Shown piece by piece: positions 4,551 to 13,683 of a stretch of 28,534 nt of DNA. The notes under the pieces are model-generated. The model worked only from the letters and a program-made list of their open reading frames with translations. It did no database searches and had not been told where the DNA came from. Both the position numbers and the translations under genes were made by a program. Each line of letters starts with the position of its first letter. Positions within the stretch are counted from its first letter, which is position 1. Location of the stretch: positions 14,223-42,756 of the forward strand of contig CAZDAH010000006.1 of assembly GCA_964503405.1 (NCBI GenBank), in the 5' to 3' direction. The DNA is from an uncultured Ignavibacteria bacterium. GTDB taxonomy: Bacteria > Zixibacteria > MSB-5A5 > UBA10806.

Positions 4551-5194
4551 TATTTCTTTGCTTTCTGCCAGTCGGCCAGGAAATTCTTCAGCCCGATATC
4601 GGTCAGGGGATGGTTCAAGAGTTTATTTATGACCGCAAAAGGCATGGTGACTACGTCGGCGCCCATCAGGGCCGATTCCACCACGTGCGTGGGGGTTCTC
4701 ACGGACGCAACCAGGACCTCGGTTTCGAACTCGTAGTTATCGTAAATGGTTATGATCTGTTCTATCAAATCCATGCCGATAATGGAGATATCGTCAAGGC
4801 GCCCGACAAACGGCGAAATGTAGGCCGCTCCAGCCTTAGCGGCGATGAGCGCCTGTGTGGGAGAGAAGCAGAGTGTGACATTTACGTTAATACCCTCCGA
4901 CGATAATTTTTTGATCGCCGCCACGCCCTCGCGGATAATGGGTATTTTGACAACAATATTATCGGCGATTTTGGCCAGTTCGTGGGCTTCTTTGAGCATT
5001 CCCTCGGTATCGGTGGCGGTGACCTCAGCCGAAACCGGGCCGTCGACAATGCCGCAGATCTCCTTCAGTATTTCCCGGTAAGGTTTGCTCTCCCTGGAGA
5101 GCAGGCTGGGATTGGTGGTGACTCCGTCGAGCATCCCCATTTTCTGGGCTGCCCGAATCTCGTCAGTATTGCCCGTGTCGATGAAAAACTTCAT
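4550..5194 (-). CDS. tal: Transaldolase / fructose-6-phosphate aldolase family (Tal/Fsa type)
   Basis: [21 protein letters not shown] Schiff-base Lys, [24 protein letters not shown]. Confidence 0.9.
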
Positions 5195-5937
5195 AATTTG
5201 ATCCCTTCGTATTCGACGTTCGCCAGGTAAAGACCATGCGGCGGCGCCAGATATTTGGATTTATTGTCCGAATTGCCGAATCTATTTTTGAAATCTTCGA
5301 GATTTTCGCGGCCGTCGGAGACGGCTGTCATGGCGCCGACCAGATACCTCACCATATTATGCAGAAACCTGTTGGCGGTAATTTCATATCGCAGAAATCC
5401 TGCGTATCGAGACCAACATGAACGATAAATCCGGCAGGCATTATCCCGCTTTCTCGACTTAACCTTGCAGAAATTATGAAACGAACGAGCCGACTCCGCC
5501 ACGCGGGCGGCTTGATTCAATATCTCGATATCGAATCTTCTGCCGACGACCCACGATAACCCCCTGTTTATCGCCGATAACCGTTCGCATATAAGATATC
5601 GGTATGTCCGCCGTCCCGCGTCTCGGCGGGCGTTGAAACCTGAGGGAACCTCTGCGCATCCGGTCACGGCGATATCTGGGGGCAACATCCTGTTGAGCTT
5701 GTAGGCGATGGTTTCCGCGTCCATTAGGGATAAGGTGAAAAAATTGGCGTACTGAGCGAGCGCGTGAACCCCCGTATCCGTGCGGCCCGAACCGGTCGGC
5801 TTGATGTCTTCCTTTAAAAATATTCTCAGTTTCTCGCTCAAGACTCCCTGCACGGTCCGTCCCCTTGCTTGCATCTGCCAGCCCTCGAATGCGGTTCCTT
5901 TGTATTCCAGTTTAAGGAGTATATTCCGTTTATTCAA
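5191..5937 (-). CDS. truA: tRNA pseudouridine(38-40) synthase
   Basis: [20 protein letters not shown] with catalytic Asp, [18 protein letters not shown] start overlaps the upstream stop. Confidence 0.95.
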
Positions 5938-6719
5938 GATCTCAACCCAAAAACAAGTATTACGGCCGAAAGCGCCAGGGTCGCTATACTCCCAGGCAGT
6001 ATCCTGATCGCCGGAAATACCGCCCGTTCGTGCCTGGTTGAGTAGCCCTTAACCGCGAGGGCCATGGAGGCCGATTCGGCGCTCTTGAAAGCGTTGACAA
6101 AGACCGCGGCCAGAAGCTGCGGCGCCGATCTCAGCTTGCCGATCAAAGAACCATCAAACGAAACACCCCTCGTTTTCAAAGCAAGCATCGTGATTCTCCC
6201 CTGACGGACGAGATCGGGAAGAAATCGAAGGGCGAGGGAAAACGATAGGGCCAAAAATGACAGGCGCCTTCCCCGGCGCCCGAAAATTCGGCTCAACCGC
6301 TCTACGGGCAGCGTAAGTTCGAAAGGCTTTACGGTCTTTAGAATCAGGTAAGCGCTATAGAAGAAGACGATGAGCTTCTCGCCGTAAAACAGCCCGGTCC
6401 TGGCGCCTTCAAGCGTTGCCTCGAGTCCGAATATCGTAAATAGCGCCTGTCCTCTGTGAGAAAACAGATGAAGCACAAAAATGAAGGCAAAGAAGAGTGC
6501 CGCCGGACGGGCCGGCTCAACTACGCTCTTGAAATCTCCTGTCCAGACTATCATCGCTGATGAGGCGAATAGGATCGCGACCATGATGAACTCCGCTTTA
6601 TTTGTCATAAGCGCCGCGGCCGCAAGACTTACGGCGAAAACGAATCTGGAGAATGAACCGGCTTGCAAAATCGACCCCCGTCTTGCTGTTATTCGCTGCC
6701 GAAAGCCGAATAATAGCAT
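5934..6719 (-). CDS. ecfT: Energy-coupling factor transporter transmembrane component T (EcfT/CbiQ family)
   Basis: Multiple TM helices, then LALRFLP, LKTRG and ALAVKGY coupling-helix motifs. Sits directly upstream of truA. Confidence 0.78.
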   Translation of the reverse strand: MLLFGFRQRITARRGSILQAGSFSRFVFAVSLAAAALMTNKAEFIMVAILFASSAMIVWTGDFKSVVEPARPAALFFAFIFVLHLFSHRGQALFTIFGLEATLEGARTGLFYGEKLIVFFYSAYLILKTVKPFELTLPVERLSRIFGRRGRRLSFLALSFSLALRFLPDLVRQGRITMLALKTRGVSFDGSLIGKLRSAPQLLAAVFVNAFKSAESASMALAVKGYSTRHERAVFPAIRILPGSIATLALSAVILVFGLRS

Positions 6720-6803
6720 ATTCGGGTCGAATATTCAAGCTCGACCGTTTCGGACGACGATGATTCTTGCGGCAAGCGCCCGGCAATACATATCTTGGCA
6801 CCC

Positions 6804-8048
6804 ATGACTCAGGAATATTCGCATCTAAGACGGAATTTCGCTTTTGGAGTCTTGAACGGCACATTCTTCATGGCCGCCCTGGCTTTTATTGCCGGTTCGA
6901 CGGTGCTGCCGCTGTTTGTCTCCAAAATGACAGGTTCGAGGGCGCTGATCGGGATTTTCTCTCATATCGAGTGGTTCGGATGGCTTTTCCCGCAGCTTTT
7001 CGCCGCAGTTTTTTTGGCCCACAAACGAAGAGTTCTCTATTTCTACAACGGCCTTTCGGCCCTGCGTCTATTTCTGTTGGGGCTTTCGGTAACAGCCATA
7101 TTCTTGTTTAGAGCGGATTATGGCCTGATCCTGGTCGCGTTCGGAATAACGTTTACCCTATTCTCGCTGGCCTCCGGCCTGGCCGGGGTGGCCTTCACGG
7201 AGATCGTGGGCAAGACTATCCCGTTGAACAAAAGAGGCAGTTTTTTCGGTCTGAGAATGTTTACCGGGGGTCTCCTGGCGGCGCTGGGAGGACTGGCGGT
7301 CAAGAGGATTATCAGCACCTACAGCTTTCCTTACGATTTTGGCTATGTTTGCGTGATCGCCTGGATATTGATGTTTCTCGGGTTGGCGGCGTTTGCCATG
7401 GTCCGGGAACCTGAGAGCGGCCAGAGCCTTGATAAGGCTTCGCCGGCGTCGCAGTTCAAGGCGGCCATGAATCTGCTGAAGATCGATGGAAATTTCAGGC
7501 GTCTGGTTTTCTCCAAGGCCTGGGTAAACACTGCGCTGATGGCGACTCCGTTTTTCATAATTTTTGCAATCGAGGATCTCGAAGCACCGGAATGGATGGC
7601 CGGCATTTATCTGACTGCACAAATGATCGGATACCTGTCGTCGAACCTGCTTTGGGGATGGCTATCGAATCATATTTCGAACAAAATCGTTATTGTCATG
7701 GCGGGAGCATGCAGGCTGATTCCGTCATTAATCGCTTTTGCCTGCTGTTTTCTTAACGTCGATCCCTACCTTTTCGCGTCCGTTTTTTTCTTCATGGGCA
7801 TGGCCGAATCGCGGATCGAAATGGGATATATGACATATTTGCTGGAAATTTCGCCGGAACGGGGCCGAATCCTGACGATAGGGCTTTTGCATACGCTGAC
7901 GGCTCCAACCGTTTTCTTTTCCGGCGTGGGGGGCTGGTTGAGCCAGCTGTTGTCATTGAAATGGCTGTTTCTAATGGTCATCCTGACCACGTCGATTTCA
8001 CTTATGATATCAGGCAGACTGAATGAGCCGAGAGTCAGATCTTCCTGA
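6804..8048 (+). CDS. MFS transporter, substrate unknown
   Basis: About 415 aa with roughly 12 hydrophobic segments; IPLNKRGSFFG and WGWLSNHISNK loop motifs. ATG 6804 preferred over TTG 6795. Confidence 0.85.
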   Translation: MTQEYSHLRRNFAFGVLNGTFFMAALAFIAGSTVLPLFVSKMTGSRALIGIFSHIEWFGWLFPQLFAAVFLAHKRRVLYFYNGLSALRLFLLGLSVTAIFLFRADYGLILVAFGITFTLFSLASGLAGVAFTEIVGKTIPLNKRGSFFGLRMFTGGLLAALGGLAVKRIISTYSFPYDFGYVCVIAWILMFLGLAAFAMVREPESGQSLDKASPASQFKAAMNLLKIDGNFRRLVFSKAWVNTALMATPFFIIFAIEDLEAPEWMAGIYLTAQMIGYLSSNLLWGWLSNHISNKIVIVMAGACRLIPSLIAFACCFLNVDPYLFASVFFFMGMAESRIEMGYMTYLLEISPERGRILTIGLLHTLTAPTVFFSGVGGWLSQLLSLKWLFLMVILTTSISLMISGRLNEPRVRSS

Positions 8049-8691
8049 CGAAGATCTCCGAGGCAATGTTATCGTCGATAGCGATCTCGGTCGAGCCGAG
8101 CCGAAGGAGGTATGAGGGTTTTTTTTGATGCAGGATGAATTTTCCCCCGGGGATGACTCCCAGGTTTATCAGCCTGTTCAACCTCTGGTGATGGGGAGTC
8201 GTGATAAACACTATCTTCCCCTGGCTGCCCACGGGCAGTTCACGCAGCGACATCACTATCGGGGTCAACTCGCGCCGTGACGATTTGCAGCAATGTCCGG
8301 GAGGAATTCTTTTGCCGTGAGGACAGGTGGGAGGATGACCCAGGATGATACAGACCGATTCGGTCACGGCGGGATCGAGGACATGTTCGAAGGAGCAGCT
8401 GGTGGAGTGCAGGGCATCTCCTTTTAATTCGAGAATCTCGGAGAAGAGCCTTTCGGCCAGGCGATGCCGACGCACCAGGAGCTCGGCGTATTCGATCCCG
8501 GATGGTGTGAGATTGACTTTTTCCTCCTCGATTGCGACCAGCCCGCGCCCGGTTAACAGGCACATGTCGTCCTCCGAGGGAGGCGAAGCCAGGTTCAACT
8601 CGGAGACGCGGATAGGAAGCCTATCCTCTTCCATGGCCTTGTACATCGCTTCCATATATTCATGAATATGATGTTCCCTATGGTCTTCCAA
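8035..8691 (-). CDS. DtxR/IdeR-family metal-binding protein with C-terminal FeoA (SH3-like) domain
   Basis: RRHRLAERLF, HSTSCSFEH, LGHPPTCPHG..IP; C-terminal RLINLGVIPG...EIAID FeoA pattern. TTG start. Confidence 0.88.
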   Translation of the reverse strand: MEDHREHHIHEYMEAMYKAMEEDRLPIRVSELNLASPPSEDDMCLLTGRGLVAIEEEKVNLTPSGIEYAELLVRRHRLAERLFSEILELKGDALHSTSCSFEHVLDPAVTESVCIILGHPPTCPHGKRIPPGHCCKSSRRELTPIVMSLRELPVGSQGKIVFITTPHHQRLNRLINLGVIPGGKFILHQKKPSYLLRLGSTEIAIDDNIASEIFVRKI

Positions 8692-8875
8692 TATTCTTCT
8701 TCCTCTTCCTGAACAGCGACGAGAAAAAGCCGACTATCGCCGACGAGTCAATCCAGCCGTAACGGCAGTTGGGACAGCAGATTTTTTCGCAACCGCGGTT
8801 TATGGGACATCCCGCGCAGATGTTATCTCCGGAGCGATCGAACTGAAAACCGCAAAGAGGGCAGGTTACCACCAT
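8678..8875 (-). CDS. 65 aa cysteine-rich protein (8 Cys) between feoB and the DtxR-FeoA gene
   Basis: MVVTCPLCGFQFDRSGDNICAGCPINRGCEKICCPNCRYGWIDSSAIVGFFSSLFRKRKKNIGRP. ATG 8875 overlaps the feoB end; the stop overlaps the next start. The track ORF 8678..9007 is over-extended. Confidence 0.8.
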   Translation of the reverse strand: MVVTCPLCGFQFDRSGDNICAGCPINRGCEKICCPNCRYGWIDSSAIVGFFSSLFRKRKKNIGRP

Positions 8876-10833
8876 ATTCCCACTTCCCTCAGAATCAAAT
8901 TCATCAGCCCGCCGACAAGAATCGCGAAAGGTAAGATGAAAGCGATCATGGTAAACGCGGTTTTGTAGCCGCGCTCCTTGATTATTATGAAGAAATTGGC
9001 TATGCACGGCACAAACAGCGTAATCGTTATCATGGCTACGATAGCCCCGATCTGATCCAGCAGGCCCTCATCGAACAGCATCTTGAAGCCGGCCGCCCCG
9101 TAGTCGCGCCTGAGAAATCCGAGAATAAACGCCTCTGACGCCCTTGCGGGAAGGCCGAGAATACCGGTAACCACGGGTGAGAATACCCTCTGCAGCGTTA
9201 CCAGCAGATTCAATTTGTCGAGCGCGAATAGTATTAAAGTTCCCAGGACGAACAGGGGAACCGCCTCCCGCAAATACCATTCGAGCCTCATCAAAGTCTT
9301 CACAATCACGTTCTTTAATCTGGGCAGACGCAAAGGCGGAATTTCCAGTATGAAATCCGACGATCGTCCGGGGATAACTTTCGAAGACAGGTAGCCGACG
9401 AGAAACAACACTGCCAGCACGACAAAGAGCCAGACAGCCACCGCCCAGAGCGAAATAGATCCCAATATGCCCAGGGTCACCCCGAGCTGGGCCGAGCACG
9501 GTATGGCCAGAGTAAGCAGGAAAGTGACCATGAGTTTTTCCTTTTTGGTGCTCAGAATTCTCGCGGTGAGCACGGCCATGGTATCGCATCCCAGTCCCAG
9601 CACCATGGGCAGTACCGCGCGGCCGTTCAATCCGATTTTCTTGAATACTCTGTCGACCATTAAGGCAAGGCGGGGCAGATACCCCGAATCCTCAAGCACC
9701 CCGAAGGCCAGGAAAAAGGTCGAAACTATGGGCAAAATGAGGGCCAGGGCATAAGTGATGGCCATGGTGATTACGCCGTATTCTCCCACGAACAGATCGC
9801 GAACGAAATCCGACGGAATCCCGGCGAAAATACTCTCGAAAAACGGATTTATGAAATTGCCGAATAATTTGTTTTCTATCAACCCGACCAGGATTTGAGC
9901 GCCGAACACACCGACGAAATAATAGACTCCCAGAAGGACGAGCAGCAGAGCCGGGATGCCGTACAGCGGATGATGCGACAGTTGGCCGACCTGGCGCAGC
10001 AGCCGTCGCCCGGCCGATCCCCTTACAGAAACATGAGCGTCGACAATTTTCCTGACGTGATCGTTTCTGAGCTTGACTATATAGAAGCCGAGAGGCTCGG
10101 CCACTTTTGACAATATCGATGTCTTGATGCGTTCGATTTCATCCAACGACATTCTCGAAAGCGAGTCGATGAATCCCGACGGCAGGCCGTTGTTGTTGAT
10201 TAGATGGCTGATGGAGATGCCGCGAGAAGCGCCCTCCTGATCCCCGATGCTCGCCTGAATTCTGCCAATAGACTCCTCGATCGATTCTCCGAAATTGATC
10301 CGGATCGCCGGCACGGCCGCGCGGGAAATAGTTTGTTTCAAATCATCCACGCCGCGGCGTTCGATGGCCACGGTGGGAATTACCGGTATTCCCAGAACGC
10401 GGGAGAGCCCGTCGTAGTCAATGCTGAAACCCGCGCCGGCCGCCTCGTCGGACATATTCAGGGCGAGCACGACTTTGCGGCCATATTCCGCAAGCTGCGA
10501 GAGAAGGACAAGACCCCTCTGGAGATTTCGGGAATCGACCACGCATATAACCGGTGAATCCGGATAGCGCAGTATCAGATCTCTTGTGACGATTTCATCT
10601 TCGGAAACGGGCGTGAGCGAATCGGCGCCCGGGGAATCGAATAGTGGACGGCTGCCTTCGGCGGTTTTGATTACGCCGCAGACAAAATCGACGGTGGTGC
10701 CGGGGTAATTGGAGACTTCGACGTATCGCCCGGATAGTGCCCCGAAGAGCGCGGATTTCCCCACGTTGGGGTTTCCCACCAGCAATACGGGGGATTCATC
10801 GCGCGCTTTTAAAACGTTTCCGGGCATTTCCAT
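8866..10833 (-). CDS. feoB: Ferrous iron transport protein B
   Basis: G1 GNPNVGKS, G2 NYPGTTVD, G3 DSPG, G4 NMSD; membrane motifs LEDSGYLPR, LGLGCD, IPCSAQL, LFVPCIA. Confidence 0.97.
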   Translation of the reverse strand: MEMPGNVLKARDESPVLLVGNPNVGKSALFGALSGRYVEVSNYPGTTVDFVCGVIKTAEGSRPLFDSPGADSLTPVSEDEIVTRDLILRYPDSPVICVVDSRNLQRGLVLLSQLAEYGRKVVLALNMSDEAAGAGFSIDYDGLSRVLGIPVIPTVAIERRGVDDLKQTISRAAVPAIRINFGESIEESIGRIQASIGDQEGASRGISISHLINNNGLPSGFIDSLSRMSLDEIERIKTSILSKVAEPLGFYIVKLRNDHVRKIVDAHVSVRGSAGRRLLRQVGQLSHHPLYGIPALLLVLLGVYYFVGVFGAQILVGLIENKLFGNFINPFFESIFAGIPSDFVRDLFVGEYGVITMAITYALALILPIVSTFFLAFGVLEDSGYLPRLALMVDRVFKKIGLNGRAVLPMVLGLGCDTMAVLTARILSTKKEKLMVTFLLTLAIPCSAQLGVTLGILGSISLWAVAVWLFVVLAVLFLVGYLSSKVIPGRSSDFILEIPPLRLPRLKNVIVKTLMRLEWYLREAVPLFVLGTLILFALDKLNLLVTLQRVFSPVVTGILGLPARASEAFILGFLRRDYGAAGFKMLFDEGLLDQIGAIVAMITITLFVPCIANFFIIIKERGYKTAFTMIAFILPFAILVGGLMNLILREVGIWW

Positions 10834-10855: not shown

Positions 10856-10874
10856 GATTTTGAATTTCATTGTC
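10856..10874. promoter_or_regulatory. Fur-box-like operator upstream of feoB
   Basis: Minus-strand GACAATGAAATTCAAAATC matches 14/19 of the classical GATAATGATAATCATTATC; lies 22 nt upstream of the feoB ATG. Confidence 0.7.
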
Positions 10875-10893: not shown

Positions 10894-11319
10894 TTAGCCG
10901 CATTTTTGGCAGAGTCCGTAAACCTCGAACCTGTGGCCTTCCGCCTTGAACCCGTAATTCGCGCTGATCTGCTTCAGCGATTTTTGAAAAGCGTCGGTGG
11001 AAAATTCCTCTGTTTTGCCGCAACTGGTGCAGACCAGATGACCGTGCTGGCTTTTGTCGATCGCTCTTTCGAAACGGGCGCGGCCGTCGCCGAAATTGAC
11101 CTCTCTGGCGATTCCGCACTCTGTGAAAAGGCGCAAGGTCCGATATACGGTGGAGAAACCGACCCGGGGATTTTTTCTGCGGATCATATCATGAAGCTCG
11201 TCAGCGGCGATATGCCTGGATGAGGAAAGAAACAGATCGAGTATGAGATTCCGCTGCTCCGTTTGTTTGAGCCCTCTCTGCCTGAGGTAGGCCGTGAGAA
11301 TTTCCTGTTCTTTTCTCAT
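10894..11319 (-). CDS. fur: Fur-family transcriptional regulator
   Basis: LKQTEQR, GFSTVYRTL, ARFE, HGHLVCTSCG, VYGLCQKC (two CxxC). Confidence 0.93.
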   Translation of the reverse strand: MRKEQEILTAYLRQRGLKQTEQRNLILDLFLSSSRHIAADELHDMIRRKNPRVGFSTVYRTLRLFTECGIAREVNFGDGRARFERAIDKSQHGHLVCTSCGKTEEFSTDAFQKSLKQISANYGFKAEGHRFEVYGLCQKCG

Positions 11320-11381: not shown

Positions 11382-11431
11382 AAGGTAATGAAACTCGTTA
11401 TTTCTGTCAATCTTTTTTTTGTGTTTTTTTT
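11382..11431 (-). promoter_or_regulatory. Sigma70-type promoter of the fur-feoB operon with upstream A-tracts
   Basis: TTGACA (11410-11405), 17 nt, TACCTT (11387-11382). Two 8-nt A-tracts 11 bp apart (11413-11420, 11424-11431) look like an UP element. Confidence 0.65.
11384..11402. promoter_or_regulatory. Fur-box-like operator overlapping the fur promoter spacer and -10
   Basis: GGTAATGAAACTCGTTATT: 14/19 to consensus. Confidence 0.65.
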
Positions 11432-12966: not shown

Positions 12967-13683
12967 TCAATTTACGCTTTCTTCCGTCCAGATGAGGATT
13001 CGCCCGCAGCTTTCGCAGGAGAATATCCGATCGCCCCGTCTGATTTCCTGAATTCGTTGCGGCGGGATCTGCTTGAAACATCCTCCGCAGGCTTTCTTGC
13101 GGATAGGCACGACGACCAGTCCGCCTTTTCCTTTTCTGACTCTCTCGTAGACTCCGATGATTTGCCTGTTGATATCCTTGATGATGCTCTTTCTTATCTC
13201 CATCTTTTCGTCGATTTTGGCCTGCAGGGTCGATTCCTCGGCCCGCAGCGCTTTCAGCTGGCCGGAATTGCTGGTTTTGGAATTTTCCAGGTTTTTTGTC
13301 AGTTCGCCGATATTCTCTTTTAATTCGTCGAGCCGGGACATCAGGGTCAGGATCCTTTCCTCTTTATCGGCGATCTCCCTTTTCTTGGAGTCGATCTCAG
13401 CGATGAGGGCGTCGTATTCTTTATTGGTTTTTATGATCTTCATCTGAGACTGGAATCTCTCCAACTCCTGCCTATTGGCCTCGATATCCAGTTCCAGAGA
13501 CTTCTGTTCGAGTTCCGACTCCAATTTGGCCGTTTCGTTTTCGGCGATAGATGTTTCCAGATCAGATACTTCTTTTTCCAGATTACGAATCATGTCCGGC
13601 AGATAAATTCGGGACCTTTCCAATTCCCCGAGATGATCATCGATTTCCTGCAGATTCAAAAGCAACGTTAGATCCTTTTCCAA
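12967..13683 (-). CDS. Coiled-coil protein with C4-type zinc ribbon (DUF164 / CT398-HP0958-like)
   Basis: Long heptad region, then CGGCF...CESCGRIL; NKEYDAL and YERVR motifs. TTG start with GGAGG at 13693-13689. Confidence 0.9.
   Translation of the reverse strand: MEKDLTLLLNLQEIDDHLGELERSRIYLPDMIRNLEKEVSDLETSIAENETAKLESELEQKSLELDIEANRQELERFQSQMKIIKTNKEYDALIAEIDSKKREIADKEERILTLMSRLDELKENIGELTKNLENSKTSNSGQLKALRAEESTLQAKIDEKMEIRKSIIKDINRQIIGVYERVRKGKGGLVVVPIRKKACGGCFKQIPPQRIQEIRRGDRIFSCESCGRILIWTEESVN

Follow-up and report, generated by a model that had tools for sequence, protein, structure and literature searches.

Organisation of the feo locus

The stretch of DNA analysed here (the window) comprises 28,534 nucleotides (nt) from an uncultured Ignavibacteria bacterium (GTDB lineage Bacteria; Zixibacteria; MSB-5A5; UBA10806; GenBank assembly GCA_964503405.1, contig CAZDAH010000006.1, positions 14,223 to 42,756) and harbours a feo operon in which a short cysteine-rich gene, the mini-gene, follows feoB. 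The operon is organised in the order fur, feoB, mini-gene and DtxR-like/FeoA gene; all genes and protein features of the window are located on its minus strand unless stated otherwise. The fur gene (10894..11319; Pfam FUR, 1.9e-34) lies directly upstream of feoB, and feoB (8866..10833), immediately upstream of the mini-gene and in one operon with it, encodes a protein of 655 amino acids (aa) matching TIGR00437 (2.7e-119) and the Pfam domains FeoB_N, Gate and FeoB_C. The mini-gene (8678..8875, stop codon included) encodes a Cys-rich mini-protein of 65 aa, an assignment based on its translation, its homologues and its ratio of non-synonymous to synonymous substitution rates (dN/dS). The last gene (8035..8691) encodes the partner, a DtxR/IdeR-like protein of 218 aa with a C-terminal FeoA/SH3 domain, which was assigned by Pfam Fe_dep_repr_C (7.7e-21), Pfam FeoA (3e-12) and an alignment to DtxR-family structures. 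The FeoA domain of the partner is the sole one in the operon, and no separate feoA is present.

Translation of 8875..8678 gives MVVTCPLCGFQFDRSGDNICAGCPINRGCEKICCPNCRYGWIDSSAIVGFFSSLFRKRKKNIGRP, followed by the stop codon. The cysteines are arranged as C5-x2-C8-x11-C20-x2-C23-x5-C29-x3-C33C34-x2-C37, and the last of them is followed by the segment AIVGFFSSLF and by the basic tail RKRKK. An earlier reading made from the letters alone (the sequence-only reading) had described the eight-Cys spacing, this segment and this tail exactly so, and had also noted that the open reading frame (ORF) overlaps both neighbours, which the positions bear out. The mini-ORF starts with an ATG at 8875 and feoB ends in ...GIWW, with its stop codon at 8866-8868; the two genes thus overlap by 10 nt (ATGGTGGTAA, 8866..8875), an arrangement also found in the Zixibacteria relative L001. 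A purine-rich sequence, GAGGGAAGTGGGA, is located just 5' of the ATG. At the other end, the stop of the mini-ORF overlaps by 14 nt (8678..8691) with the TTG start (8691) of the partner gene, and this start is backed by L001, where the aligned codon is an ATG and the overlap likewise comprises 14 nt. A longer ORF of 109 aa, starting from a GTG at 9007, is not the gene, since its extension runs out of frame within feoB and the homologues begin at the methionine of MVV(T/N)CPLCG.

The mini-gene is real and evolves under purifying selection. Its dN/dS was 0.30 between the window and L001, and 0.12 between L001 and a further relative, L002, with synonymous sites near saturation in these comparisons. 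Eight Cys within 33 residues represent the maximum of the window in all six frames, and this density was reached somewhere in the six frames in 2 out of 100 shuffles; by itself, the Cys count of the mini-protein is just mildly unusual. The locus occurs in DNA metagenome runs only, from sediment and soil.

Distribution and conservation of the mini-protein family

A single-sequence word-index search, the first that was run, revealed no homologue of the mini-protein; exhaustive HMMER and profile searches were required to find the family. The exhaustive HMMER search against 1.84 billion representative proteins revealed at least 468 homologue clusters (50% identity) at E<=1e-3, and the profile searches gave 256 and 100 further family proteins. 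Named bacterial members belong to Zixibacteria, Armatimonadota, Acidobacteriota (including Thermoanaerobaculum), Deltaproteobacteria/Thermodesulfobacteriota and Anaeromyxobacter, as well as to Verrucomicrobiae, Chloroflexota/Anaerolineae, Marinimicrobia and Fidelibacterota, and one archaeal member was found in a metagenome-assembled genome (MAG) of Methanobacteriota. In public databases the members are annotated as 'hypothetical protein', as 'rubredoxin', with generic Zn-ribbon names or as 'FeoA'.

No family of Pfam, NCBIfam or PADLOC reached its threshold for the mini-protein, and the matches obtained there correspond to knuckle-level zinc-ribbon noise. A PDB profile search and Foldseek revealed no PDB family covering it, and no description of the family was found in the literature searched. 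The family is uncatalogued and widespread. A match to an already characterised family would speak against the sequence-only reading, and the searches of Pfam, NCBIfam and PDB ended without any family assignment.

The core pattern C-x2-C-x(7-14)-C-x(2-3)-C-x(4-8)-C-x(4-5)-C-x2-C, with seven Cys, is present in 250 of the 253 collected members. Residues C5, C8, C23, C29, C34, P35 and C37 are invariant in an alignment of 67 sequences, and G9, F12, C33 and Y39 are conserved in at least 90% of the same alignment. C20 is always there, its spacing to C23 being x2 in 165 members and x3 in 85. The spacing between C23 and C29 is x5 in 94% of the members, and a Pro directly follows C23 in 85%. Position 33 is occupied by Cys in 79% of 250 members and in 74% of 347 distinct cores, and otherwise chiefly by K or R. 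The coupling between P24 and C33 across the family was not significant (Fisher p=0.07). The fur-feoB-GSU1381-ideR cluster of Geobacter sulfurreducens might hold a further member; no Geobacter protein was found among the matches of the profile search built from Deltaproteobacteria-type members.

Linkage to FeoB and FeoA

A homologue of the mini-gene is located directly 3' of feoB in all 18 loci examined, eight of which were found by a FeoB-based scan of GTDB genomes, while the other ten were gene-called and reached via ten different family members. The linkage of a conserved small protein to feoB, as proposed in the sequence-only reading, is therefore present throughout these loci, and conserved homologues do stand next to feoB. 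In the eight loci of the FeoB-based scan, which belong to four phyla, a homologous Cys-rich ORF lies at the feoB stop and is followed by another ORF; the DtxR motif RRHRLAE was found in the displayed part of this following ORF in at least six of the eight.

In the ten gene-called loci, the spacing between feoB and the Cys gene ranges from an overlap of 4 nt to a gap of 52 nt. Five of these loci (L009, L011, L012, L013 and L015) possess a Fe_dep_repr_C+FeoA protein after the Cys gene, as in the window. Locus L017 possesses a stand-alone FeoA of 74 aa at this place, with an overlap of 4 nt, and L016 a protein of 265 aa without a Pfam record. In three further loci (L014, L018 and L019) the Cys domain is itself fused to FeoA. 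All nine long family members that were tested have a C-terminal FeoA domain, and 85 out of the 347 distinct family members are of fused length. No feoA was found upstream of feoB in the gene-called loci.

Based on the gene order in these loci, the fusions and the lack of an upstream feoA, the conserved unit is feoB, Cys module and FeoA domain, in that order. The Cys-FeoA fusions, as Rosetta-stone evidence, speak for a joint action of the Cys module and FeoA. The FeoA partner and the frequent fusions of the Cys domain to FeoA were absent from the sequence-only reading, and they make FeoA as good a candidate as FeoB for the protein with which the mini-protein works. One representative protein, P0039, appears to be a fusion of FeoB and the Cys domain; it possesses a Gly/Pro/Ala-rich stretch in place of the last FeoB transmembrane helix, is probably an artefact of frameshift or assembly, and was not counted.

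Predicted fold and structural neighbours

An AlphaFold2 model of the mini-protein was built with the 67-sequence alignment. The model contains two beta-hairpins and a C-terminal helix (residues 46-59). The first hairpin is formed by strands 2-4 and 11-13, and its turn carries the outer knuckle 1, CPLC (8852..8863), with the invariant C5 and C8. The second is formed by strands 30-33 and 40-44, and at its turn lies CCPNC (8765..8779), which comprises the dispensable C33 and the outer knuckle 2 with C34, P35 and C37. The remaining cysteines C20, C23 and C29, and also C33, are placed on or beside the loop between the hairpins. In these models the N-terminal part of the mini-protein is a zinc-ribbon/rubredoxin-like pair of hairpins, with the outer knuckles forming one predicted Cys4 site.

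The same module was predicted for the fused member P0226 from a 47-sequence alignment, with blocks of predicted local distance difference test (pLDDT) scores of 69-90 and a helix at residues 43-59. A disordered linker (60-67) separates the Cys module from a confident FeoA domain, and the predicted template modelling score (pTM) of 0.52 indicates that the two domains are not packed in a fixed way. At moderate confidence, the Cys module of both models consists of four short strands and a C-terminal helix and contains no helix-turn-helix, in agreement with the sequence-only reading, which had stated that the mini-protein has no winged helix.

Foldseek against the PDB returned no match at E<=0.001 (best E 0.35), and the neighbours listed at E>=0.35 are all small zinc ribbons, namely ZitP, ZifS, Pol III C11, VdcD, LysW and HVO_2753. 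A comparison of the family profile with PDB sequences gave short rubredoxins of 45 aa across both outer knuckles, with E values from 6e-4 (6RXN) to 1e-2. The top matches of that comparison were arrays of C2H2 zinc fingers (E down to 8e-8), and these were rejected as an artefact of the repeated C-x2-C...F, as their His ligands are aligned to Cys of the family and the match spans two fingers. The sub-threshold Pfam matches all belong to zinc-ribbon or double-zinc-ribbon families, no Pfam rubredoxin match of the mini-protein reached the threshold, and 9 out of 125 members gave sub-threshold matches to the rubredoxin-like domain of rubrerythrin.

Like rubredoxins and zinc ribbons, the mini-protein has two CxxC knuckles (CPxCG ... 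CPxCxY), each placed by the model in the turn of a beta-hairpin, and its profile gives the weak match to rubredoxins. It differs from them in a site of three to four Cys in the inter-hairpin loop and in the added amphipathic helix, and its matches stay below the family thresholds. We know of no member of the rubredoxin/zinc-ribbon fold that is linked to Feo. The sequence-only reading had proposed that the outer CxxC pairs form a zinc/rubredoxin-like knuckle; the nested topology that this implies is consistent with the AlphaFold hairpins and with the weak rubredoxin match, and to that extent the proposal may stand.

Inner Cys site and comparison with known Feo-associated proteins

The inner motif CAGCPINRGC (8789..8818), with C20, C23 and C29, is located in the inter-hairpin loop. 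In E. coli FeoC, the sequence 56-CX4CX2CX5C-70 forms an oxygen-sensitive [4Fe-4S] cluster, and the central Cys are needed for full function (PMC8749426). The E. coli FeoC sequence used for the comparison is identical to that of PDB 1XN7. Alignment of C20-AG-C23-P-INRG-C29 of the window with C61-KS-C64-P-EGKA-C70 of FeoC (residues 61-70) reveals the common pattern C-x2-C-P-x4-C. This likeness is a resemblance of motifs, for which homology is not demonstrable from the sequences. Nothing in the mini-protein corresponds to the first Cys of the FeoC motif, and its candidate fourth ligand, C33, lies downstream.

FeoC (PF09012; E. coli YhgG, PDB 1XN7; K. pneumoniae FeoC, 2K02) is similar to the mini-protein in being small (78 aa, compared with 65 aa here), Cys-rich and encoded directly after feoB. 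Unlike FeoC, the mini-protein is predicted to lack the winged helix and to form two beta-hairpins with one helix; its predicted outer Cys4 site and the amphipathic, basic nature of its helix come in addition. The genes are also ordered differently, as feoB-X-feoA here and as feoA-feoB-feoC in the case of FeoC. The taxa here include Zixibacteria, Acidobacteriota, Chloroflexota, Verrucomicrobiota and Desulfobacterota among others, in contrast to FeoC, which is found in Gammaproteobacteria and is mostly confined to them (PMC8749426). The mini-protein gave no match to PF09012 at E<=1. When 125 members were compared with Pfam at E<=0.01, this family was also absent from the list of the 25 families matched most often. 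The proposal of the sequence-only reading that the mini-protein is a candidate FeoC analog holds for its position after feoB and for the pattern of the inner motif; it found no support in a hidden Markov model match, significant homology or a winged helix.

Proteins of the family PF12669 carry an N-terminal membrane helix. No hydrophobic segment of transmembrane length is present in the mini-protein, whose longest uncharged stretch is C-terminal and comprises 12 residues. Like the mini-gene, the ORFs of PF12669 are small, rich in Cys and annotated as lying downstream of feoB; they have been regarded as FeoC-like elements, and their motif is Cx3-5Cx2-3Cx6-8C (PMC8749426). The mini-protein differs from them in the N-terminal place of the Cys domain (the first Cys is residue 5), in the number of Cys (seven to eight) and in their spacings (x2, x11, x2, x5, x3, x0 and x2). 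As for FeoC, no match of the mini-protein to PF12669 was found at E<=1, and the list of the 25 families matched most often by those 125 members (E<=0.01) does not contain it either.

C-terminal amphipathic helix

The segment AIVGFFSSLF and the tail RKRKK (8696..8740) correspond to the AlphaFold helix at residues 46-59. Across the family, the segment after the last Cys has a median best helical hydrophobic moment of 0.75, which exceeds that of its own shuffles in 93% of the members, and the C-terminal tails are net positive in 92%. The amphipathic segment and basic tail noted in the sequence-only reading thus recur across the family.

Like the C-terminal helices of the MinD/FtsA type, the predicted helix is short and has a single hydrophobic face (V/I, F, F/L, L, F) that is flanked by Lys/Arg. 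Helices of this type target the membrane, and family sequences such as ...VVEALKKLFGG resemble the ...KGFLKRLFGG of MinD. The MinD helix scores low (0.27) in the same hydrophobic-moment calculation, so the comparison is only qualitative. Unlike the helices of MinD and FtsA, the one described here is internal in the FeoA fusions and could dock on FeoB.

DtxR-like partner protein

The partner is a DtxR/IdeR homologue of full length; its residues 11-184 align to DtxR/IdeR structures, and the metal-ligand motifs RHRLAE and H..SCSFEH are kept. Pfam did not detect a DtxR DNA-binding domain in the partner. The region of the recognition helix is shortened and acidic (SPPSEDDMCLL), and an extra motif, TCPHGKRIPPGHCC, conserved among relatives, is found where DtxR has TSPYGNPIPG. 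Judged by these features, the partner may be a metal-sensing FeoA of DtxR origin, with the transporter as its target, and not a transcriptional repressor.

In locus L012, the DtxR_C+FeoA partner (5192-6511) is extended by an FMN_bind domain (PF04205), and a gene for an Aq_1264_TM membrane protein follows (6508-7026). This is a hint that some forms of the system may be connected with redox chemistry or flavins. Downstream of the operon in the window, a gene encoding a major facilitator superfamily (MFS) transporter (6795-8048, plus strand) converges on the feo genes, its last 14 nt (8035-8048) being shared with the 3' end of the DtxR-like gene. In the archaeal locus L013, too, feoB has an MFS gene beside it.

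Iron regulation and genomic neighbourhood

In the window the fur gene adjoins feoB, as it does in seven of the ten loci that were gene-called. The window contains five 14/19 matches to the Fur-box consensus of E. coli, compared with about 0.4 expected per shuffled window. Two of the five are located upstream of feoB (10856-10874) and upstream of fur (11384-11402), the latter just after a TTGACA hexamer. These matches, to a consensus that is that of E. coli, are only suggestive of iron regulation. The scan for promoters and terminators revealed nothing above chance.

Components of an energy-coupling factor (ECF)/CbiQ-type transporter are encoded near feoB in the window (5934-6719), and a full CbiM-PDGLE-CbiQ-ABC cluster lies directly upstream of feoB in L011 and L015. 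This suggests a recurrent metal-uptake neighbourhood around feoB.

Two further Cys-rich products were noticed in the window. A second Cys4 zinc-ribbon protein is encoded at 12967-13683; it combines a CT398-like coiled coil with a C4 zinc ribbon (PF24481 and PF02591) and belongs to a known, unrelated family. An alternative frame of 47 codons within feoB (9882-10022), with 7 Cys in 33 residues, was rejected as chance, since 6-7 Cys are routine in shuffles.

Proposed function and alternative explanations

The mini-protein is very probably an accessory component of the Feo system that is made in step with FeoB and acts with the FeoA domain. Among the small accessory proteins of Feo it probably represents a third kind, with a structure of its own. 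In the mechanism that we propose, it would be a cytoplasmic Feo subunit whose production is tied to that of FeoB through translational coupling. Its N-terminal 40 residues would form a rubredoxin/zinc-ribbon-like pair of hairpins, stapled by a structural Cys4 site (C5, C8, C34 and C37) occupied by Zn or Fe. A second, more exposed thiolate site on the loop, formed by C20, C23, C29 and usually C33, would bind Fe-S or Fe(II) and report the iron or redox status, a proposal made because the C-x2-C-P-x4-C spacing matches the Fe-S motif of enterobacterial FeoC. The amphipathic basic helix would keep the Cys module bound to FeoB or to the membrane on its inner side, where the module, together with FeoA, would modulate the G-domain or the gate of FeoB. 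FeoA stabilises GTP-bound FeoB (PMC8980893). We infer metal binding, the identity of the metal, the contact with the membrane or FeoB and the regulatory role alike. The specific combination of a structural outer site, an Fe-S/Fe(II)-sensing inner site, placement by the helix and tuning with FeoA is offered tentatively, at somewhat less than an even chance of being right in full.

Several observations weigh against this mechanism. C33 is missing in 21-26% of the members, so the inner site often has just three Cys, and no compensating His is found where C33 is missing; 36 of the 37 C33-less members with the x2 spacing have no His between C20 and C23. The fourth ligand of any cluster would therefore have to be a residue other than Cys or come from another molecule. 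The likeness to FeoC is confined to 12 columns (FeoC residues 60-71), which are all that hhalign aligns, with a probability of 1.75%, and the function of FeoC itself is disputed (PMC8749426). The confidence of the AlphaFold model is moderate (mean pLDDT 68), and the nested pairing of the ligands, with C5, C8, C34 and C37 as the outer set, is deduced from the predicted secondary structure and topology. In the FeoA fusions the helix is internal, a position that suits a linker or a helix docking on FeoB no less than an anchor in the membrane. In addition, every family member derives from a metagenome or a MAG.

The chief alternative is an adaptor with a purely structural role, which would hold Zn(II) permanently in both Cys sites and tether an FeoA-type SH3 domain to FeoB or to the membrane, with no sensing. 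Zinc ribbons are the sole structural neighbours and the only source of the sub-threshold Pfam matches, CPxCG knuckles are typical Zn sites, and the fusion to FeoA via a flexible linker looks like a tether. The three Cys often found at the inner site are nevertheless unusual for structural Zn, and C33 is frequently lost with no other ligand in its stead, which speaks against an inner Zn(Cys)4 site of the classical structural kind; the inner spacing moreover copies the Fe-S motif of FeoC, and the short rubredoxin match permits Fe as well as Zn. We consider the adaptor a serious contender, if a rather unlikely one. The rubredoxin match over both knuckles, together with the public annotation of some members as 'rubredoxin', could also indicate an iron protein that carries electrons or, as a chaperone, is the first in the cytoplasm to accept Fe(II) from FeoB, and that is not a regulator. 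Production that would be stoichiometric with and coupled to FeoB, judging from the gene overlap, would suit such a carrier, as would the redox chemistry hinted at in some systems by the FMN_bind domain of the L012 partner. This reading is improbable, as the Pfam rubredoxin matches all stay below threshold and the constant pairing or fusion with FeoA, a regulator of the FeoB G-domain (PMC8980893), argues for a regulatory complex.

The zinc-ribbon fold and the RKRKK tail, along with a few automated annotations of members as RNA-binding Zn-ribbon or RpoP-like, might instead suggest a regulator that binds nucleic acids and controls the expression of feo, a role formerly suggested for FeoC. Such a role is very improbable here: the basic residues lie on one face of an amphipathic helix with a conserved hydrophobic face, the Cys domain is fused to FeoA and not to DNA-binding domains, and the operon is already flanked by fur and the DtxR-like gene. 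That the reading frame is no gene at all, but a chance Cys-rich ORF at the feoB-dtxR junction, could be argued from the 2 shuffles of equal Cys density and the empty word-index search. Homology and selection refute it, because 468 representative homologue clusters exist and the gene is under purifying selection; its position is moreover kept in 18 of 18 loci, and its domain occurs in fusions.

To return to the sensing accessory protein, the mini-protein and its DtxR-like neighbour might even form a complete cytoplasmic iron-feedback module that gates FeoB post-translationally by the intracellular iron and redox state. A rubredoxin-like scaffold, held by an in-plane helix and with an exposed site of three to four Cys reversibly binding Fe(II) or an oxygen-labile Fe-S cluster, would then act with a DtxR-derived sensor that had lost DNA binding and kept the metal ligands and the SH3/FeoA domain. 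We regard this extended model as unlikely. If true, it would be a third independently evolved answer to the 'FeoC problem' and the first DtxR fold acting as a transporter regulator instead of a repressor.

Implications

The regulation of FeoB and the role of the adjoining small Cys-rich proteins are a long-standing question. A repeated origin of FeoC-like elements rich in Cys was explicitly left open in PMC8749426, a study of Proteobacteria, Firmicutes, Bacteroidetes, Actinobacteria, Cyanobacteria and Deinococcus-Thermus; the phyla of the family described here are outside that set. The mini-protein family probably represents a third, structurally unrelated Cys-rich protein recruited to the position after feoB, in many other phyla. 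Its linkage to FeoA is new information, and the recurrent fusion is direct genomic evidence for the Cys module and FeoA acting together. As a compact, soluble-looking predicted metal domain of 40 residues with a clear set of invariant ligands, the module makes the question of sensor or structural element tractable by experiment, and a family model would allow Feo systems in environmental genomes to be better annotated.

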